Source: Eubacterium sp. (lineage in GTDB: Bacteria > Bacillota > Clostridia > Eubacteriales > Eubacteriaceae). From it: a stretch of 64,000 bases of DNA. The position numbers and the translations under genes are program-made. The stretch covers positions 32,319-96,318 of the forward strand of contig JAUNGS010000001.1 in NCBI GenBank assembly GCA_030524435.1, read 5' to 3'. The notes beneath the pieces are model-generated. The model did no database searches. It was given only the letters and a program-made list of their open reading frames with translations, and was not told the origin of the DNA. This document shows positions 20,117 to 28,906 of the stretch, in pieces (positions within the stretch are counted from its first letter, which is position 1; each line of letters starts with the position of its first letter).

Positions 20117-21496
20117 TTATGCCTCCGATACCGTCACCATCCTTCCCAGAGGCGCAATATCCTTTCTGTAAAATCTGAGCATCAGACCGAAGCCCACCGC
20201 CGCCGACAGCATGTCCGCCGCCGGTACCGAAAGCCAGACCATATTCAGGCTGCCCGTCAAAGATAAAAGCCAGGCCACCGGAATCAGCACCACATAGTTT
20301 CTCGACAAATCGATGAGCATGGCAGTAATACTGTGGCCCAGAGCCTGAAGGATACAATTGCTCATATTCCTCACCGCACAGAGCACGTAACAGCAGGTCA
20401 GCATCCGCATCCCCCAGATCCCGATCTCTATCATCTCATCGGTGGCGTTAAACATCCTGAGAAACCACTGGGGAAAACCCACAGAGAATACCGTGCCCAC
20501 CGCCATCATCACAGCAGCGTAGAGATAGCCATAGCGGATAGCTTCATCGATACGGCTTTTCTTTTTAGCCCCGTAATTGTAGGCGATGATAGGGATAGTG
20601 GCACTGCACAGGGCGTTTAGGATAGCGTAACAGAATCCCGTCACCCGACAGCAGACCCCAAAGGTGGCAACGGCGGTGCTGGAAAAACGATTCATGACGG
20701 CGTTATAATTGACCATCATCAAACTGGTTAAAGACATAATTAAAGCCGTGGGCATTCCCAGCACAAGGAGCTTTTGTATGGCTGAAAGGGGAGGCCGCCA
20801 GGCCGAAGCAAGCTGTACATCTCTGTTTTTTCTGATATTCAAAAACAGCGCGATGCAGGCTGCCGTCATCTGGCTGACCACCGTCGCCACCGCCGCTCCG
20901 GCAATGCCCATCGCAGGCGCTCCAAAATGGCCGAAAATTAAGATGTAGTCCAGAATAATATTCAGAATACCGCCGACGCCCTGGGAAATCATGCTGTACA
21001 TTGTCCTCCCTGTGGAGATCAGCATCCGCTCAAAGACCAGCTGGGCCATGGTCGCAATGCCCAGGCTAAGGTAAACCCTGAGGTACTGCACTCCTGCCCT
21101 TTGAATTGCCAATTGATCTGTCTGAAGAGCCATGTAGGGTGTCACCAGGAAGGCTGCTGCTAAAAAAGAGAGAATACCGCAGGCCAGCATAACCCACAGC
21201 GCCGCAGCAGCGGCATCGTTGACCTTCCGTTGATTTTTTTCACCAAGTCCCCGGGAGAGCATGGTATTCATTCCCACCGCAATGCCGCTGCCCACGGCAA
21301 TCAGCACCGTCACCAGAGGATTGGCAAAGGTGATGGCCGCCATGGCATCCTCGCTGATCTGAGAGACGAAGATACCGTCCGCCACATTATAAAGGGACTG
21401 CACCGCTGTGGAAAGCACCACAGGCAGAGCCATACTCAAAAGCAGAGACCAGACCGGCTGGGTTCCCATTTTATTTTCATCCATTTTTGCTGCCAT
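20117..21496 (-). CDS. MATE family efflux transporter
   Basis: MALP...SLYNVADGIFV, NIILDYILIFG..G.PAMGIAGAAVAT; ~12 TM. Confidence 0.92.
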   Translation of the reverse strand: MAAKMDENKMGTQPVWSLLLSMALPVVLSTAVQSLYNVADGIFVSQISEDAMAAITFANPLVTVLIAVGSGIAVGMNTMLSRGLGEKNQRKVNDAAAAALWVMLACGILSFLAAAFLVTPYMALQTDQLAIQRAGVQYLRVYLSLGIATMAQLVFERMLISTGRTMYSMISQGVGGILNIILDYILIFGHFGAPAMGIAGAAVATVVSQMTAACIALFLNIRKNRDVQLASAWRPPLSAIQKLLVLGMPTALIMSLTSLMMVNYNAVMNRFSSTAVATFGVCCRVTGFCYAILNALCSATIPIIAYNYGAKKKSRIDEAIRYGYLYAAVMMAVGTVFSVGFPQWFLRMFNATDEMIEIGIWGMRMLTCCYVLCAVRNMSNCILQALGHSITAMLIDLSRNYVVLIPVAWLLSLTGSLNMVWLSVPAADMLSAAVGFGLMLRFYRKDIAPLGRMVTVSEA

Positions 21497-22571: not shown

Positions 22572-23778
22572 AATCTTCTCTCTGAAGAAGCCAATCCGCA
22601 ATATTACAAATCTCTATACCTTCATAGGTATATCTTGGATGCCTTGTTCTTGCAATAATTTTCTTTGAATAGGCATCCCGTATACTTAAGAGTGGAGTAA
22701 TCTCTCTTTTAAAGGTGTTCTCATCCGCAATATTGTCACTGACCTGGATATAGATCTTTTCACTGCCGCGCTGGGCCACAAAATCCACTTCCTTCTGGTA
22801 TAGCTTTCCCACATAGACATCAAAGCCTCTGCGCAGAAGCTCTATACAGACAATGTTTTCATAACTCCGTCCATAATCCATATTTCTGCTGCCCAAAACG
22901 GCATACCTGATCCCCAGGTCACACAGATAAAACTTATCTAAAGATTCCAGATATTTTTTTCCGCGAATATCGTAGCGTTTGACATCATAAAACACAAAGG
23001 CGTTACAGAGATAACGAATATATTTTCCAATGGTCGTGTGATTCGTCGGAATATTGTTGGCAGACAGGATACCACTCACTTTGTTGGGGGAGGTCAGATT
23101 ACTGACATTATCCATCAAAAATTCGCTGAGTCGCTGCAACACCATGGTATCTGAAAGATTGTATTTCTGCACAAGATCTCTGGTTACAATGGTTTCATAA
23201 ACCTCTTTAATATAATTCGACCGGTCTTTTTCCACTTGGTATTCATAAGACCCTGCCAAACCGCCGCTTATAGTATACGCATCAAAAAGCTGCTCTATAT
23301 CTCCGCTTCCGCTGTCTTTGTAGTAATCACAGTATTCTTCAAAGCTAAAAGGAAATACATGAAGGGAAATATATCTTCCGGTAAATAGGGTTGCCAAATC
23401 TGCACTTAATAAAAACGCATTTGAGCCTGTAATATAGATATCGTATTTACGTTTTGAATATAGGCTGTTAATTGCCAATTCAAAGTCCGGACACATCTGC
23501 ACTTCATCTACAAAAACATAATTTGCTACCCCCTCCAAATAATGTGCTTCCACATATGTATGCAGGGCGCGATACTCTTTAATTTTCTCAAAGTCCAGAT
23601 CCATATAATCGATATAAATAATATTCGCATTTTTAACATGCTTTCGAAGATACTCGATATAAGCCAGCATCAACTGGGATTTCCCAGAACGTCTAATTCC
23701 TGTAATGATCTTTATATCCGGCGTATCCTTTAAAGCGATGATTCGGTCCAAATATCTTTTTCGTACGATTGTTTTCAC
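22570..23778 (-). CDS. AAA_14 ATPase with DUF4143 domain
   Basis: GIRRSGKS, FVDEVQ, TGSNA.LLS, KFYLCDLG, EVDFVA..YIQVS. Confidence 0.9.
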   Translation of the reverse strand: MKTIVRKRYLDRIIALKDTPDIKIITGIRRSGKSQLMLAYIEYLRKHVKNANIIYIDYMDLDFEKIKEYRALHTYVEAHYLEGVANYVFVDEVQMCPDFELAINSLYSKRKYDIYITGSNAFLLSADLATLFTGRYISLHVFPFSFEEYCDYYKDSGSGDIEQLFDAYTISGGLAGSYEYQVEKDRSNYIKEVYETIVTRDLVQKYNLSDTMVLQRLSEFLMDNVSNLTSPNKVSGILSANNIPTNHTTIGKYIRYLCNAFVFYDVKRYDIRGKKYLESLDKFYLCDLGIRYAVLGSRNMDYGRSYENIVCIELLRRGFDVYVGKLYQKEVDFVAQRGSEKIYIQVSDNIADENTFKREITPLLSIRDAYSKKIIARTRHPRYTYEGIEICNIADWLLQRED

Positions 23779-23788
23779 GGCCCACCCA

Positions 23789-24039
23789 CTTTCAAAACTT
23801 TAAAATTTTTAGTTTTTTGAAATCAGTTGGATTATATCATTTCAATATCACAAGTTCAACGTCTCCACTTTCGAAACTTTAATTTTTTTTATTTTTCGAA
23901 AGTCATTTTTGCTCTATTTTTTATTTGCAGCATATTTCCTAAAGACTTCGGGGATACACTATAAAAATGCGCAGAAGCTCAGCATCCTGCTGAACCTCTG
24001 CGCGCTTTCGAAACTTTAAAATTTTTCATTTTTTGAAAG
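23789..24039. promoter_or_regulatory. Three ~35-bp imperfect palindromes (putative operators) around the AAA_14 gene promoter
   Basis: CTTTC(G/A)AAACTTTAA..TTTT...TTTT(C/T)GAAA at 23789, 23868, 24005; promoter TTGAAC-17-TATAAT at 23859-23831. Confidence 0.65.
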
Positions 24040-24121
24040 TCGCTTTGCTGCGACGTTTTTAATACTTTACTGCACAGCTCTCCTTGATTTTGTGGGTATA
24101 TCTATACAGCAGGTAATACAG

Positions 24122-24754: not shown

Positions 24755-25705
24755 TTAAATCAACATCTCCTCAGATTGCTGTGAAAATGTCAGGCGCCCC
24801 AAAATCTCCCCAACATCCCCATCAATACAGATCGACCTGTCCTCGATCTCCTTGGGGGCATAGGCGTCACCGTAGTTGAGGCAGGCGTAGACAGCCTTGG
24901 GATTTTTGTCCGTCATCTGCCAGAAGGCATATTTTATGATGCCGGGCGTATTATATCCGACCCCCAGCTCCAAAAACAGTATTTTCATTCCTTCATGCCT
25001 TCGGATAAACTCTGAGTACCGCATGGCCGCCGTATGCCAGCCCTCGTCCTCCACAAAGGTATTGTCTGCCCGAAGATTCATTGTCATGGGAGCGCCACAT
25101 TTTGGACAGTGGGGGATAAGCGCCGTCGGAACGGCCATCTCAGGCTTTGTTCCCTCGGGCAAAAACAGCTGACCTGTCCCATCGATTTTATACCCCTGGG
25201 CCTCGACCATCGCTTTAATAATTTCCTCGTTGTCATAAGTTTCCTGATGACAGGGGACACTGCACTGAAAGAGTCCGTAATCCCCCTGGGTGTAGAACAG
25301 CCGGTGCTTGTCAAAGCCCGCCTTCTGGAAGCAGTGATCCACGTTGGTGGTCAGCACGAAATAATCCTTATCCTGAACGAGGTTGTAAAGCCTGTTGTAC
25401 ACGGGCTTCGGGGCGTCCATATAGCGATTGATATAGATATACCGGCTCCAATAGGCCCAGTGCTCCTCCAGGGTATCGTAGGGATAGAAGCCCCCGGAGT
25501 ACATATCCCTGAAGCCGTATTTATCCGCAAAATCGCCAAAATAGCGGCGGAAGCGCTCTCCGGTGTAGACGTAGCCCGCCGAGGTGGAAAGCCCTGCGCC
25601 AGCGCCGATAACAACGGCCTCCGCCGCTTCAAGGGACTCCTTTAAATGTCTTATTTTATCCGAGTAATTGTCTGTAAATTTCATAATCCGTTTCCTTGAA
25701 AACAT
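24755..25705 (-). CDS. Class M sirtuin (SirTM), NAD-dependent protein ADP-ribosyltransferase
   Basis: GAGAGLS, TTNVDH, YTQGDY (Gln in place of canonical His), CSVPC/CPKC zinc, NLR, LELGVG; overlaps macrodomain gene. Confidence 0.88.
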   Translation of the reverse strand: MFSRKRIMKFTDNYSDKIRHLKESLEAAEAVVIGAGAGLSTSAGYVYTGERFRRYFGDFADKYGFRDMYSGGFYPYDTLEEHWAYWSRYIYINRYMDAPKPVYNRLYNLVQDKDYFVLTTNVDHCFQKAGFDKHRLFYTQGDYGLFQCSVPCHQETYDNEEIIKAMVEAQGYKIDGTGQLFLPEGTKPEMAVPTALIPHCPKCGAPMTMNLRADNTFVEDEGWHTAAMRYSEFIRRHEGMKILFLELGVGYNTPGIIKYAFWQMTDKNPKAVYACLNYGDAYAPKEIEDRSICIDGDVGEILGRLTFSQQSEEMLI

Positions 25706-26429
25706 TAAAAATCACCTTCATCGCATCCTGGGTTTCCCTTTGATACGCCCTGACGGTCTCGACCGCAATCTCTGCCGCCCGGGCCCCTGGGAAGTGGAAT
25801 TCCCCTGTAGAGATACAGCAGAAGGCGATGCTCTCCAGCTGGTTTTTCTCTGCAATTTCCAGGCAGGAACGGTAGCAGGCGGCCAGCAGGTCTTCATCCC
25901 TCTGGGTCAGTCTGCCCTGGATGATGGGGCCGACGGTGTGAATCACATACCGGCAGGGAAGATTGTAGGCCGGCGTAATTTTGGCCCTGCCCGTCGCCTC
26001 CTCATGGCCCTGCTTTTCCATAATTTCGGCACAGGCCAGACGCAGCTGTACGCCGGAGAAGGTGTGGATGGCGTTGTCGATGCAGCCATGGTTGGGGCAG
26101 AAGCAGCCCAGCATCTGGCTGTTGGCGGCGTTGACGATGGCGTCGCATTTGAGGGTGGTGATGTCGCCCTGCCAGAGATAGATCCCCGGCTCCACGGGCT
26201 CGAGCGCCTTGTAATCTGTGATGCCCTTGGCGCTGGTTTCCGCCTGCAGATAGGCATCCTGAATTTTTAAAAATTCCTCATCTGCGGGCTGGGGCCCTCT
26301 GACATTGAACAGCGCCCGCAGCAAATGCTTTTGGTCCTGGCTGTTTTGGGGAATTTCCACGTCTGCATACTGGGGCTGCTCCTTTAAAAGTGCTCTAATT
26401 AAATAATTTCTTCTTTCACTCTGGGTCAT
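25656..26429 (-). CDS. Zn-macrodomain protein-ADP-ribose hydrolase
   Basis: WQGDIT, AIVNAAN, GCFCPNHGCIDNAIH (C-x-x-x-x-H-x-C zinc loop), HTVGP, CISTGEF.FP. Confidence 0.92.
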   Translation of the reverse strand: MTQSERRNYLIRALLKEQPQYADVEIPQNSQDQKHLLRALFNVRGPQPADEEFLKIQDAYLQAETSAKGITDYKALEPVEPGIYLWQGDITTLKCDAIVNAANSQMLGCFCPNHGCIDNAIHTFSGVQLRLACAEIMEKQGHEEATGRAKITPAYNLPCRYVIHTVGPIIQGRLTQRDEDLLAACYRSCLEIAEKNQLESIAFCCISTGEFHFPGARAAEIAVETVRAYQRETQDAMKVIFNVFKETDYEIYRQLLG

Positions 26430-26431
26430 TT

Positions 26432-27016
26432 TTACACCTCGCCTTCCACAATTTTAACCCGTCCAGGCTTTCTTGGCTTGGTATGGGGTTCTTCACCATC
26501 CAAATAGCCTAAAATCACAAAACAAATCGCCGAATAATTTTCGGGTACCTCCCATTGTCTGAGCAGGGCCTGGCCCGCATCGCTGGCGAAGGTTTCTTCC
26601 CCCCGGGAGATGATACAGGAGGCAATGCCCAGCTCCGTGGCCTGAAGAATCATATTCTCCGCACAGCAGAAGGCATCGGCAATTCGGAACATGAAATTGT
26701 TTTGTCCAAAGATGGCGATGACGGCGGGGGCGCCGTAAAAGCCATTTTTAATGGTCGGATCGTCGATGTTGCTGGGCTGCTCCTTGGACACATAGGACCC
26801 CGCCAGATTACTGCGGTCAAATGTCGCCAGGTTCATGATGCCGATTTTGGTAGTTAAAGCCTGATCTCTGACGCCCACCAGCATGCTTCGCTGGCCGCCG
26901 CCGGCGTTGGGGGCAAAATTGCCGGCCTCCAAAATCTTCTCTAGGTCCGCTCTGTCTATCTGTTTGTCCGTATATTTTCTAATTGAGTGTCTCGCTTTTA
27001 TAATATCCATTAACAT
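26432..27016 (-). CDS. Nitroreductase family flavoprotein
   Basis: RHSIRKY, AGNFAPNAGG.Q, AENMIL.A..LGI.SC. Confidence 0.9.
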   Translation of the reverse strand: MLMDIIKARHSIRKYTDKQIDRADLEKILEAGNFAPNAGGGQRSMLVGVRDQALTTKIGIMNLATFDRSNLAGSYVSKEQPSNIDDPTIKNGFYGAPAVIAIFGQNNFMFRIADAFCCAENMILQATELGIASCIISRGEETFASDAGQALLRQWEVPENYSAICFVILGYLDGEEPHTKPRKPGRVKIVEGEV

Positions 27017-27028
27017 GGCTTTTCCTCC

Positions 27029-28063
27029 TTAGCCTACTTCCTTCCAGCACTGGGGATCTGCGCTGTAGAAGTTTCCCGTCTTGCCGTTTGCCACCGCAGG
27101 GCAGCCCCGGCAGAAGGCCAGCAGCTCACATTTGCTGCATTTTTCAAATTTCGTGTAATCCCGGTAATTCTCCATCTGACAGGTCCAGACGTCCGCCAGG
27201 CGGTCGGTAAACACGTCTCCAACCCGGCTGTTCTGCACCCGCCGGCAGGCAAAGACCTCGCCGGTGGGCAAAATGGTCAGATGACAATTGCCGCAGTTGC
27301 ATCCGCCGTAGATCATGCCCTCCTCCACTGTATCGGGAAGCTTAAAGGTCCCGGTTTCGTATTCGTACAGGGTCCACAGATGATCCTTTTTATTAAAATA
27401 GGTATCACAGCCCGCCGCCTCGTAGGCCTTGAATTTCTTGTCACAGCGGGCCAAAAGCGCACGGTAATCGGTGGGAAAGATGGCTGTATCCTTTTCCTCG
27501 CTGGTGGGACAATACCGGGCAAAGGCAAAGACTTTTACCTTGTGGGCCACCACCGTATCGATGATGTCGGGGATCTCCTCGATATTGGTACCCGAAACCG
27601 TCGTCATGACCACGCTCTTGATGCCTGCGCGGTTGAGACAGCCAATCTTTTCCAGGGTGATGTCGAAGCTGCCCGGCTTTCTGAACCAGTCGTGGGTGTC
27701 GCGCATGCCGTCCAGAGACAGCTGGTATTTTTCACAGCCGAGGTCCTTTAATTTTTTGCACACCACATCGTCCAGATGAAAGGGATTGCCAAGGATCGTA
27801 AAGGGAATGGCGTGTTCTTTCATAAGTTCGAGGAGCCGCCAGAAATCCGGATGTAAAATGGGATCCCCGCCGGTGATGTAAAAATAGGGGAGACGGCCGT
27901 AGACCTCGCAGAAATCCAGGCAATTGTAGAAGGTCTCCTCCATCTGTGCCCAATTCATAGACACCAGCTTTTTGCAATTGTCCTCTGAAAAGATATAGCA
28001 GTGCTTGCACCGCTGGTCACAATCGTCAGTAATATGCCATTGAAAAGAAAAATACTGTTTCAT
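27029..28063 (-). CDS. Radical SAM/SPASM peptide maturase, ACGX system
   Basis: CDQRCKHC motif, ITGGDP, SLDG; SPASM cysteines CNCGNC..C..CSKC.....C.GC.....DPQC; adjacent ACGX peptide. Confidence 0.9.
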   Translation of the reverse strand: MKQYFSFQWHITDDCDQRCKHCYIFSEDNCKKLVSMNWAQMEETFYNCLDFCEVYGRLPYFYITGGDPILHPDFWRLLELMKEHAIPFTILGNPFHLDDVVCKKLKDLGCEKYQLSLDGMRDTHDWFRKPGSFDITLEKIGCLNRAGIKSVVMTTVSGTNIEEIPDIIDTVVAHKVKVFAFARYCPTSEEKDTAIFPTDYRALLARCDKKFKAYEAAGCDTYFNKKDHLWTLYEYETGTFKLPDTVEEGMIYGGCNCGNCHLTILPTGEVFACRRVQNSRVGDVFTDRLADVWTCQMENYRDYTKFEKCSKCELLAFCRGCPAVANGKTGNFYSADPQCWKEVG

Positions 28064-28116
28064 CTCATGTCCTCTTCATCTATATAAAATCGGTTTAACC
28101 GAGGGTATTTTCGTTT

Positions 28117-28144
28117 TTTCCGGCGGAATGGGTGCCGCCGGAAA
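28117..28144 (-). promoter_or_regulatory. GC-rich stem-loop between precursor and maturase
   Basis: TTTCCGGCGG-8nt-CCGCCGGAAA; followed by an A-run, not a U-run, on the transcribed strand. Confidence 0.6.
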
Positions 28145-28164
28145 GCTTTCTTACTGCGAAGCTC

Positions 28165-28350
28165 CTACTTGTCAGAAGCGCCACAGGCAGAACCACAGGC
28201 CGCCGGGGCTGCTTCCGGTTTGTCAGAAGTGCCGCAGGCAGAGCCACAGGCCGCCGGAGTTTCCTCGGGCTTATCCGAAGCGCCGCAGGCGGTACCACAG
28301 GCAGAAGCCTTTGTTTCTTTGTTCCATCCGAATAAATTTGAAAGTGACAT
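28165..28350 (-). CDS. ACGX-repeat RiPP precursor peptide (61 aa)
   Basis: Leader MSLSNLFGWN plus three ACG(T/S)ACG(A/T)SDK repeats, 6 Cys; RBS GGAGG. Confidence 0.9.
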   Translation of the reverse strand: MSLSNLFGWNKETKASACGTACGASDKPEETPAACGSACGTSDKPEAAPAACGSACGASDK

Positions 28351-28428
28351 TGTATTGACCTCCGTTAGGTTAATTCAGAAGACAGTATCGCCCTCTGTGA
28401 TTTCTATTTTACGGATTTTTCTGGCTGC

Positions 28429-28470
28429 CACAAGTACGCACAATTTTATTACCTAGTTACCTTTTTGTAA
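28429..28470. promoter_or_regulatory. Putative HxlR-family binding site
   Basis: CACAAGTACGCAC (reverse complement identical to 18608-18620) plus GTTAC-N5-GTAAC palindrome. Confidence 0.55.
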
Positions 28471-28585
28471 CCCTTAGCTTTCACCGCGCCGACGAAACAC
28501 CTTTTATTTGACAAAGGCCGCCGTTATGTCATATTATGATTATAGTACATTGCATTTAATGGCTTGCAAATTCAGGAGGTACCCC

Positions 28586-28906
28586 ATGCTGACCAAAGAA
28601 GAAATGCCCGCCTGCCCCGTTGCCACCACCGTGCAGATGATCGGCAGCAAGTGGAAGCTGCTGATCATGAGAAATTTGCTGGTCCGCCCCTGGCGCTTTA
28701 ACGAGCTTAAAAAGGATTTGGAGGGCATCAGCCAGAAGGTGTTGACTGACAGCCTGCGCTCCATGGAGGCCGACGGCATCATCACCCGCACCGTCTACCC
28801 CGAGGTGCCCCCCAGGGTAGAGTACGCCCTCAGCGAGCTGGGGGAATCTATGCGGCCCATCATCAAGGCCATGGAGAGCTGGGGCATCGCCTATAAAAAT
28901 CTATAA
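28586..28906 (+). CDS. HxlR/DUF24 regulator with N-terminal CP motif (possibly thiol-sensing)
   Basis: ACPV...IGSKWK..I, RFNEL, ISQKVLT..LR, YPEVPPRVEY.L; ATG 28586 with AGGAGG. Confidence 0.92.
   Translation: MLTKEEMPACPVATTVQMIGSKWKLLIMRNLLVRPWRFNELKKDLEGISQKVLTDSLRSMEADGIITRTVYPEVPPRVEYALSELGESMRPIIKAMESWGIAYKNL

Follow-up and report, generated by a model that had tools for sequence, protein, structure and literature searches.

A small operon in a Eubacterium sp. genome joins an ACGX-repeat peptide (AcgA) and its radical SAM (rSAM) maturase (AcgM) to a class M sirtuin (SirTM) and a Zn-macrodomain protein, raising the question of what the ADP-ribosylation pair acts upon and what the peptide is for. 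To our knowledge, the only known SirTM target is GcvH-L. An earlier note on this DNA had proposed that the peptide takes the place of GcvH-L. At somewhat less than even confidence, we favor a different reading: a conserved thiol/electrophile-stress operon of anaerobic Bacillota, in which an HxlR switch would control a peptide converted by AcgM into a thiooxazole scavenger, along with a co-regulated SirTM/Zn-macro pair that would not target the peptide.

Gene content of the locus

In the window (the whole 64-kb stretch of Eubacterium sp. DNA analyzed), five minus-strand ORFs and a divergent HxlR gene are real and intact (Table 1). Their order and families confirm the earlier description of five co-directional genes, ACGX peptide first, divergent from a CP-motif HxlR gene. 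From the peptide gene on, the intergenic gaps are 101, 12, and 2 nt, followed by a 50-nt overlap of the sirtuin and macrodomain ORFs. As had also been stated, the operon holds no exporter or protease ORF. A MATE gene at 20117-21496 was considered as exporter and rejected, having its own LysR neighbor and no recurrence with the cassette.

Table 1 Features of the ACGX-SirTM locus (window coordinates).
Feature	Position	Strand	Evidence
SirTM (class M sirtuin), predicted ADP-ribosyltransferase	24755..25705	-	solved 5a3a, E 8.5e-65; QG motif replaces catalytic HG; RBS before ATG 25705
Zn-macrodomain, predicted ADP-ribose hydrolase	25656..26429	-	PRK04143 (protein-ADP-ribose hydrolase family) 380 bits, cut-off 272; C-x4-H-x-C; 5kiv/8rsi, E about 1e-78
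Nitroreductase-family flavoenzyme, swappable reductase slot	26432..27016	-	PF00881
AcgM radical SAM/SPASM maturase	27029..28063	-	TIGR04340 604.9 bits, cut-off 400; no N-terminal RRE; seven conserved SPASM Cys (alignment)
Stem-loop 3' of peptide gene, likely mRNA-stabilizing	28116..28145	-	no U tract on transcribed strand
AcgA ACGX-repeat precursor, 61 aa	28165..28350	-	TIGR04341 60.3 bits, cut-off 28; 3 x 51-nt repeat; alignment
Sigma-70-like promoter match facing peptide gene	28443..28471	-	9/12 matches
Inverted repeat GTTAC-N6-GTAAC, likely HxlR operator	28456..28471	.	overlaps -35 match
HxlR (MarR/DUF24-type) regulator, N-terminal Cys-Pro	28586..28906	+	PF01638; RBS

The maturase and its peptide

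After its own family, AcgM is closest to SbtM (TIGR04082, 157.5 bits), all other families scoring 105.6 bits or less (PapB, 54.3). SbtM is likewise the next-best family for 35 of the 38 AcgM relatives scanned. The nearest characterized family is therefore SbtM, which converts Cys to 5-thiooxazole (-4 Da), and not the thioether makers, as judged from profiles. This likeness rests on scores below the SbtM cut-off of 350 (the PapB cut-off being 340), and AcgM covers SbtM profile positions 198-515 only rather than the full length. The predicted AcgM model (pLDDT 95) begins at barrel strand 1 and has no RRE; a fold search returned generic SPASM maturases (SuiB, SkfB, anSME, CteB) and does not discriminate between the candidate chemistries.

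AcgA consists of a short leader and three 17-aa repeats, each with A-C-G-S/T-A-C-G-x-x-D-K, giving 6 Cys and three SDK sites; by eye, no hydrophobic stretch is visible at its N-terminus. Among 579 peptide Cys, Gly follows in 577 cases and Ala precedes in 548, so Ala-Cys-Gly is near invariant, whereas Cys-X3-Asp can be lost. The A-C-G of ACGX peptides may be compared with the SbtM substrate, described as Gly-Cys within a GGUG motif (PMC9204691), and with the EGKCG repeats of captophorins, for which EAACG is reported among the variants tested (PMC12668002); one relative (L239) carries GGCG. These features suggest that the peptide is likely matured to a cytoplasmic thiooxazole, a thiol-bearing stress scavenger, making the -2 Da per crosslink foreseen by the earlier note less likely than -4 Da.

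AcgM might instead be a ranthipeptide maturase forming PapB-type C-X3-D thioethers between the second Cys of each repeat and Asp (-2 Da each, first Cys free), with the operon and SirTM otherwise as in our main reading; we put this at about one chance in four. PapB is described as acting on the C-X3-D motif (PMC9413430), which occurs three times in the window peptide, using 3 of its 6 Cys. The seven conserved SPASM Cys would leave room for a substrate thiol to bind, and Asp at +4 is present in 109 of 112 loci, an observation that also weighs against the thiooxazole reading. The PapB score, however, is far below that of SbtM, and three loci (L165, L224, and L225) combine an rSAM 60-68% identical to AcgM with a peptide without Asp at +4. 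Moreover, Ala and Gly are near invariant around every Cys, even those without an Asp partner. Such a thioether would consume the Asp, which could then not accept ADP-ribose. More distant rSAM relatives (L218 and L219, 48-50% identity) adjoin unlike peptides, so the chemistry of the clade may vary; among the papers listed by our literature searches on ACGX and radical SAM, none treats ACGX chemistry.

Linkage of the peptide with SirTM

Gut anaerobes commonly carry the ACGX system, with about 690 matching stretches stored in the species collection, and RefSeq annotates the same acgA/acgM order in Roseburia sp. 831b. The co-occurrence survey suggested in the earlier note revealed an ACGX-SirTM association conserved far above chance and shared with other genomes. 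Of 25 ACGX-bearing genomes in evenly drawn samples, 15 have SirTM immediately downstream, as do 30 of the 46 close ACGX loci that have full flank; the background is 19 SirTM-bearing genomes among 400 of the phylum. Outside one family, it adjoins ACGX in 14 of 15 evenly drawn genomes, the last being unclear. The linkage reappears in a distant SirTM clade (only 40-46% identical) and survives gene-order changes, as at 59% rSAM and 41% SirTM identity. Among the papers listed by literature searches on ACGX, SirTM, and radical SAM, none describes the ACGX-SirTM/Zn-macro link.

One might suspect that unrelated genes came together by chance on a mobile island, given that the rSAM is found on five plasmid records and on two viral contigs and has an archaeal copy, that low-GC flanks with gene remnants surround the cassette, and that six same-genus genomes gave no DNA match to the rSAM or the peptide. 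This idea is largely refuted, and very improbable, in view of the shared operator, the tight spacing, and the recurrence at such divergence with changed order. Distance correlations (rSAM-SirTM, 0.31 over 45 loci and 0.56 over 26 common loci; rSAM-HxlR, 0.34, and 0.42 over the common loci; SirTM-Macro, 0.49 and 0.55, likewise) show genes inherited as a block, with no pair singled out.

Each module also occurs alone. Neither SirTM nor the macrodomain is found in 16 of the 46 full-flank ACGX loci; of the 39 SirTM-anchored loci that extend 6 kb or more upstream, 6 have the rSAM and 33 lack it, and the rSAM/peptide cassette accompanies SirTM in 3 of 19 SirTM genomes of one family and in none of 14 further SirTM loci. 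Among SirTM loci lacking the peptide, several (including L098, L110, and L134) retain gene fragments and look like recent deletions; if so, they would weigh against treating peptide and SirTM as independent modules, as does a linkage (14 of 15, with deep-clade recurrence) tighter than loose co-regulation needs.

Candidate targets of SirTM

The QG motif is kept in all 123 homologs of the SirTM tree set and the zinc motif in all 97 macrodomain homologs; the window macrodomain also has the N-terminal helical extension, and the overlapping ORFs provide the genetic linkage to a macrodomain that characterizes class M. Neither GcvH nor LplA is encoded in the operon, as previously noted; both are encoded elsewhere in the genome, the sole LplA on another contig. 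The genome's GcvH is canonical, matching canonical H proteins at E 1e-26 and 5a35 at 2e-5. We found no GcvH or LplA match in 180 related loci (L003-L182), in agreement with the proposed mutual exclusion with gcvH-L/lplA2; this result is nonetheless uninformative, because SirTM loci without the peptide lack both genes too. Replacement of GcvH-L by the peptide gains little from these data, since most clostridial SirTM/Zn-macro operons have neither. GcvH-L of S. aureus is described as a protected lipoate donor (PMC12440151), a role that the peptide would be unable to copy.

The matured peptide could still be a SirTM substrate, ADP-ribose on a repeat Asp or a ring thiol forming a reversible protective cap that the Zn-macrodomain removes. 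Besides the linkage described above, known SirTM is reported to need a pre-modified substrate (PMC4518038), and Zn-macrodomains are described as cleaving S-glycosidic bonds, those of lone pairs being unable to demodify GcvH-L (PMC11490716, which states the targets of pairs outside GcvH-L operons to be unknown). Asp was lost in none of 61 SirTM loci and in 3 of 26 SirTM-less loci (Fisher p 0.025, the loci being non-independent), and this confinement of all three losses is also at odds with independent modules. Against a peptide substrate, Asp is kept in the other 23 SirTM-less loci, including three from 99-100% complete genomes without a SirTM match. Most SirTM loci of the same clades have no peptide, and in the known system SirTM acts on a folded lipoyl carrier with a role in lipoate transfer, as described in PMC12440151. 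No specialization is evident either: ACGX-linked and unlinked sequences interleave in the SirTM tree, where the label changes 20 times and starred branches force at least 7 of these changes, with linked/unlinked pairs as close as 92-97% identity, and no SirTM or macrodomain residue among the columns listed tracks linkage, the top Fisher columns vanishing on 7 independent pairs. SirTM is also intact without a neighboring macrodomain in 10 of the 11 such ACGX loci listed, which likewise makes a toxin-antitoxin reading unlikely. A predicted complex of SirTM, NAD, Zn, and unmodified peptide scored 0.00 and bears neither way. On balance, we consider the peptide an unlikely substrate. The fuller version, in which AcgM makes a cytoplasmic poly-thiooxazole peptide without oxygen, SirTM adds ADP-ribose to this peptide as a cap, and the Zn-macrodomain takes the cap off under stress, would in our estimate be improbable as well.

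A further candidate is a flavoprotein encoded in operons of this type, the PNPOx-like or PNPOx-ferredoxin protein being the most plausible, with the peptide cassette as a passenger. PNPOx-type genes adjoin SirTM in 52 of 80 SirTM-anchored loci and occur in 26 of 36 SirTM-positive against 4 of 18 SirTM-negative ACGX loci (p 0.001, partly a gene-order effect), and homologs are encoded elsewhere in this Eubacterium sp. genome. However, neither this operon nor any of the deep-clade loci L212, L229, L238, and L239 contains such a gene, and we found no biochemical precedent; we give this proposal roughly one chance in ten. The SirTM/Zn-macro pair is likely a co-regulated module, with the peptide a minority candidate target.

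Regulation and proposed mechanism

The regulator carries a PACP motif and shows the features of HxlR/DUF24 Cys sensors, namely the HxlR domain, the N-terminal Cys-Pro, and an inverted repeat in the divergent spacer. It scores 115.7 bits against the RrpB model, below the cut-off of 175; RrpA and RrpB, the nearest named regulators, are described as using a Cys switch to control divergent reductases (PMC8765430). Of 112 HxlR upstream regions, 55 contain the repeat GTTAC-N6-GTAAC with 9 or more of 10 matches (about 1 in shuffles): 25 ACGX+SirTM, 15 ACGX-only, and 15 SirTM/Macro-only loci, with fewer than 1 each in shuffles. At 8 or more matches, the figures are 36/42, 24/31, and 33/39, respectively. 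Regulator and candidate operator are therefore common to loci with and without SirTM linkage. The promoter match is weak alone, because the scan gave 5 sites against 3.7 in shuffles.

Peptide-rSAM spacers contain a stem of at least 8 bp in 46 of 79 cases, with a U-rich tail in 1 of the 46. A terminator on the coding strand was rejected for want of a U tract; the conserved hairpin is likely mRNA-stabilizing. A reductase lies directly 3' of the rSAM in 101 of 105 loci, the slot being occupied by a nitroreductase in 68, a zinc-type dehydrogenase/quinone reductase in 30, and PNPOx-ferredoxin in 3. Recycling of the peptide by the nitroreductase, as once suggested, fits poorly with this replacement in 30 loci.

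Alongside the observed gene content, families, linkage, operator-like repeat, hairpin, and module independence, we infer the following course of events for the stress operon. HxlR would sense stress through its Cys-Pro and act at the inverted repeat. The hairpin would raise peptide mRNA above enzyme mRNA, so that the peptide acts in bulk. The substrate thiol may bind to an open auxiliary cluster of AcgM, which would then perform SbtM-type chemistry on each Ala-Cys-Gly, with -4 Da per Cys, the free thiol kept, and absorbance at ~305 nm, an oxygen-independent counterpart to the MNIO chemistry of bufferins and captophorins. The matured peptide would serve as a cytoplasmic thiol/metal scavenger, and the reductase slot could feed electrons to AcgM or clear quinones and nitro compounds. 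Under the same stress, SirTM would ADP-ribosylate some cellular protein, and the Zn-macrodomain would reverse this. A modular thiol-stress operon with a probable cytoplasmic thiooxazole peptide is our best reading of the sequences.

Comparison with known systems

Both genes of the cassette are above the curated cut-offs of the ACGX system (TIGR04341 acgA, TIGR04340 acgM), models that define only the peptide/rSAM pair; SirTM and the Zn-macrodomain are extra here, and the nearness to SbtM, the near-invariant Ala-Cys-Gly, the conserved non-terminator hairpin, and the swappable reductase are new. The extended SirTM operon of Staphylococcaceae and Lactobacillales (GcvH-L, Zn-Macro, SirTM, LplA2, OYE/LLM) shares the QG SirTM, the Zn-macrodomain, flavin oxidoreductase neighbors, and a stress context, whereas our locus has no GcvH-L or LplA2 and no lipoate to protect or transfer, and carries the peptide/rSAM cassette and HxlR instead. 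Lone SirTM/Zn-Macro pairs, as described by Rack 2015 and Ariza 2024, likewise stand without GcvH-L; here HxlR, the operator, and variable redox genes accompany the pair in most loci examined, indicating that HxlR control is the rule for the clostridial pairs. The operon thereby offers a short list of candidate SirTM targets, the matured peptide and PNPOx-type flavoproteins. Were the peptide capped by SirTM, it would be the first RiPP known to undergo reversible ADP-ribosylation, as well as the first known SirTM target outside the GcvH-L operon.

PapB/freyrasin resembles the present pair in its C-X3-D motifs and differs in its profile, in the missing RRE of AcgM, and in an Asp that is dispensable in three loci. 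SbtM, the next-best family, has in common a SPASM domain, and its GGUG substrate motif may parallel the A-C-G of the peptide as an x-Cys/Sec-Gly; AcgM lacks its ~200-residue N-terminal part, and the peptide has Cys repeats and no selenocysteine. Bufferins, oxazolin, and captophorins, 5-thiooxazole metallophores, also have repeated x-Cys-Gly in a small precursor and a metal or oxidative stress context. They are made by MNIO enzymes, mostly in Pseudomonadota, with Sec export in bufferins, whereas the present system has an rSAM, belongs to anaerobes, shows no visible signal peptide, and has no ORF for an MNIO (DUF692) enzyme or DUF2063 partner in the operon. If AcgM is SbtM-like, the ACGX system would be the equivalent, in anaerobes and inside the cell, of the bufferin and captophorin metallophores.

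Conservation of the ACGX-SirTM operon

The five same-direction genes and the divergent hxlR gene are present in the window as the earlier note described. Profile searches placed the peptide and rSAM above the ACGX cut-offs and the macrodomain, which carries the zinc motif, above the PRK04143 cut-off; the sirtuin has the class M QG motif. The juxtaposition also holds beyond this genome: among 25 non-self genomes with an ACGX peptide and its rSAM, taken from evenly drawn samples, 15 had SirTM next to this pair, 8 (each from family f37) did not, and 2 were unclear. Left out of the 25 were two loci (L218 and L219) whose rSAM is above the cut-off with other peptides alongside, and four genomes below it; no SirTM was found near the rSAM in these six.

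In an rSAM survey of the species collection (best 80 of 578 confirmed loci, close relatives with 73-87% identity), SirTM lay downstream in 42. With a flank of at least 6.9 kb, SirTM was downstream in 30 of 46 rSAM loci, 24 of which also had the macrodomain, and 16 had neither; of the 68 loci with sufficient upstream sequence, 66 carried the peptide and 64 carried HxlR. SirTM occurred in 19 of 400 phylum genomes. Linkage to ACGX is kept with SirTMs only 40-46% identical, which form their own supported clade with an altered gene order. We conclude that the operon type is real, conserved and assembled from catalogued parts. It is apparently unpublished; a search of the open-licence literature yielded no paper that links SirTM to radical SAM or reports on the ACGX system.

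The host genome (G000, 81% complete) encodes one copy each of SirTM, Zn-macrodomain, rSAM and peptide. Its single canonical GcvH, adjoining lipoamide dehydrogenase, and its single LplA are on contigs other than that of the operon.

Dependence of SirTM on the peptide

The earlier note proposed that the rSAM-matured peptide replaces lipoyl-GcvH-L as thiol carrier and ADP-ribose acceptor. Per the locus data, SirTM mostly does not depend on the peptide. Among SirTM-anchored loci (best 80 of 586 metagenome loci), 10 had an rSAM; where 6 kb of upstream sequence was present, rSAM was found in 6, HxlR in 30, and the macrodomain in 37 of 39. One family had SirTM in 19 and ACGX in 3 of 189 scored genomes, and 14 further SirTM loci (13 from the same family, two from the deep clade) gave no ACGX, GcvH or LplA match, with a divergent HxlR in 11. 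On a FastTree phylogeny of 123 SirTMs, the ACGX-linkage label changed 20 times (shuffled mean 41), at least 7 being forced. Linked and unlinked SirTMs are up to 92-97% identical, although some unlinked loci have the look of recent deletions; no alignment column tracked linkage in independent pairs. It is improbable that the matured peptide is the reversibly ADP-ribosylated substrate of SirTM.

The commonest extra SirTM partner was a PNPOx-like protein, alone or ferredoxin-fused (52 of the same best 80 of 586). None is encoded in the window operon; homologues lie on G000 contigs C53 and C70, in clusters whose gene sets occur beside SirTM in other genomes. DUF1848 repeatedly adjoins SirTM or the macrodomain (L226, L229, L239, L033, others), DUF5131 and glycine-betaine-type ABC genes being rarer recurrent neighbours in these operons. 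Locus L247 has a two-gene SirTM-like tandem adjoining HxlR; near the L167 tandem, no macrodomain match was found.

Coordinates of features in the window, its genome (G000) and loci from other genomes (L)
Feature	Location	Observation
Perfect inverted repeat	window 28456-28471	Overlap with a weak -35 match that points towards the peptide gene
Three imperfect AT-rich 42-nt repeats	window 23775-24053	Partly palindromic; at the island's low-GC edge; flanked by AAA-ATPase gene and YhcG/DUF1016 fragment
Second HxlR (59%)	G000:C53:33641-35433	Divergent from reductase-like gene and PNPOx gene
Separate PNPOx / PNPOx-ferredoxin cluster	G000:C70:28453-30334	
Three divergent SirTM-like genes in tandem	L167:5495-8212 (G221:C28; also G246, G271)	30-38% to window SirTM
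ACGX-like rSAM (48%)	L219:1108-7017	Above TIGR04340 cut-off; among eight similar double-glycine-leader peptides, seven with Cys close to core start
ACGX-like rSAM (50%)	L218:3047-4401	Different Cys/Ser-rich peptide; methyltransferase-looking gene
DGC-domain/GcvH fusion and more DGC genes	L197:4316-7093; also L199 (same-genus G404, G403)	About 1 kb upstream of SirTM

Reductase slot and regulator

In 105 loci with enough sequence 3' of the rSAM, the next gene most often encodes a nitroreductase (68 loci); a zinc-type dehydrogenase takes this place in 30 and PNPOx-ferredoxin in 3. The reductase, rather than SirTM, is therefore the constant partner of the cassette.

An inverted repeat, GT(T/C)AC-N6-GT(A/G)AC, upstream of HxlR is common to all three locus types. 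At least 9 of 10 positions matched in 25 of 42 ACGX+SirTM, 15 of 31 ACGX-only, and 15 of 39 SirTM/Macro-only loci, with fewer than one match per type expected from base shuffles. We infer both HxlR binding to this repeat and the direction of control. The nearest named regulators, RrpA/RrpB, are described as using a cysteine switch and controlling divergent reductases (PMC8765430).

Peptide and maturase chemistry

Across 86 loci, Gly follows 577 and Ala precedes 548 of 579 peptide cysteines. The +4 position is Asp in 171 and Cys in 157 of 336 cases in SirTM loci, with similar shares (46 and 35 of 91) without SirTM. In an enlarged set, C-X3-D occurred in 61 of 61 SirTM-adjacent, 23 of 26 SirTM-less, and 25 of 25 loci of unclear status. 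The three peptides lacking it (L165, L224, L225) show that the rSAM does not need Asp; all being SirTM-less, they mildly favor the peptide as acceptor. Three nearly complete genomes (G110, G898, G950) keep Asp with no SirTM match in a one-query search. L225, on a Methanosphaera plasmid (NZ_CP118754.2), is an archaeal copy of the cassette that adjoins BREX genes; it consists of the regulator and peptide genes, an rSAM gene that is split, and a zinc-type dehydrogenase gene.

Of 79 spacers 3' of the peptide gene, 46 contain a stem of at least 8 bp, in unrelated sequences, and just one of these 46 has a U-rich tail; folding against base shuffles gave z < -2 in 57 (window spacer, -1.8). Differential mRNA stability, with the peptide produced in bulk, is probable.

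After its own family, the rSAM (AcgM) scored best with SbtM (157.5 bits), ahead of heme-synthesis rSAMs (at most 105.6); SbtM was second-best for 35 of 38 relatives scanned (of 150 listed). SbtM is reported to convert the Cys of a GG-U/C-G motif to thio(seleno)oxazole, with loss of 4 Da and the thiol kept (PMC9204691). By profile scores and match to the motif, the only criteria applied, a thiooxazole would be the leading candidate product, at about even odds. A C-X3-D thioether (chemistry in PMC9413430) would fit the motif and is less likely, thioether makers scoring far lower (PapB, 54.3 bits); other chemistry seems less probable still. Seven SPASM cysteines are conserved in the alignment of relatives, and no RRE was found in the AcgM structure model. 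Copper binding and ties to metal or oxidative stress are described for 5-thiooxazole peptides with repeated K-C-G units (PMC12668002, PMC11626156, PMC12538549).

Among distant relatives, ACGX-like rSAMs (35-38%) in L220-L223 lie immediately 5' of genes that by eye resemble AgrB and a kinase. Two long proteins (P0065, P0046) have a C-terminal ACGX-like rSAM domain; the N-terminal half of P0065 scores as PapB-like, making it a two-maturase fusion.

Comparison with known SirTM systems

In the extended operon, SirTM reportedly targets Asp27 of lipoylated GcvH-L (PMC4518038), a modification described as protecting lipoate and regulating its transfer (PMC12440151). In the same-genus loci L197 and L199, SirTM has no adjacent macrodomain, which lies elsewhere beside HxlR (L198, L186); their DGC-domain/GcvH fusion is a possible lipoyl-carrier target in the window's genus. 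Lone SirTM/Zn-macrodomain pairs are known; PMC11490716 gives them no known targets and reports that their Zn-macrodomains cannot demodify GcvH-L. The same source describes Zn-macrodomains as able to cleave S-glycosidic bonds, so a peptide thiol might carry an ADP-ribose cap.
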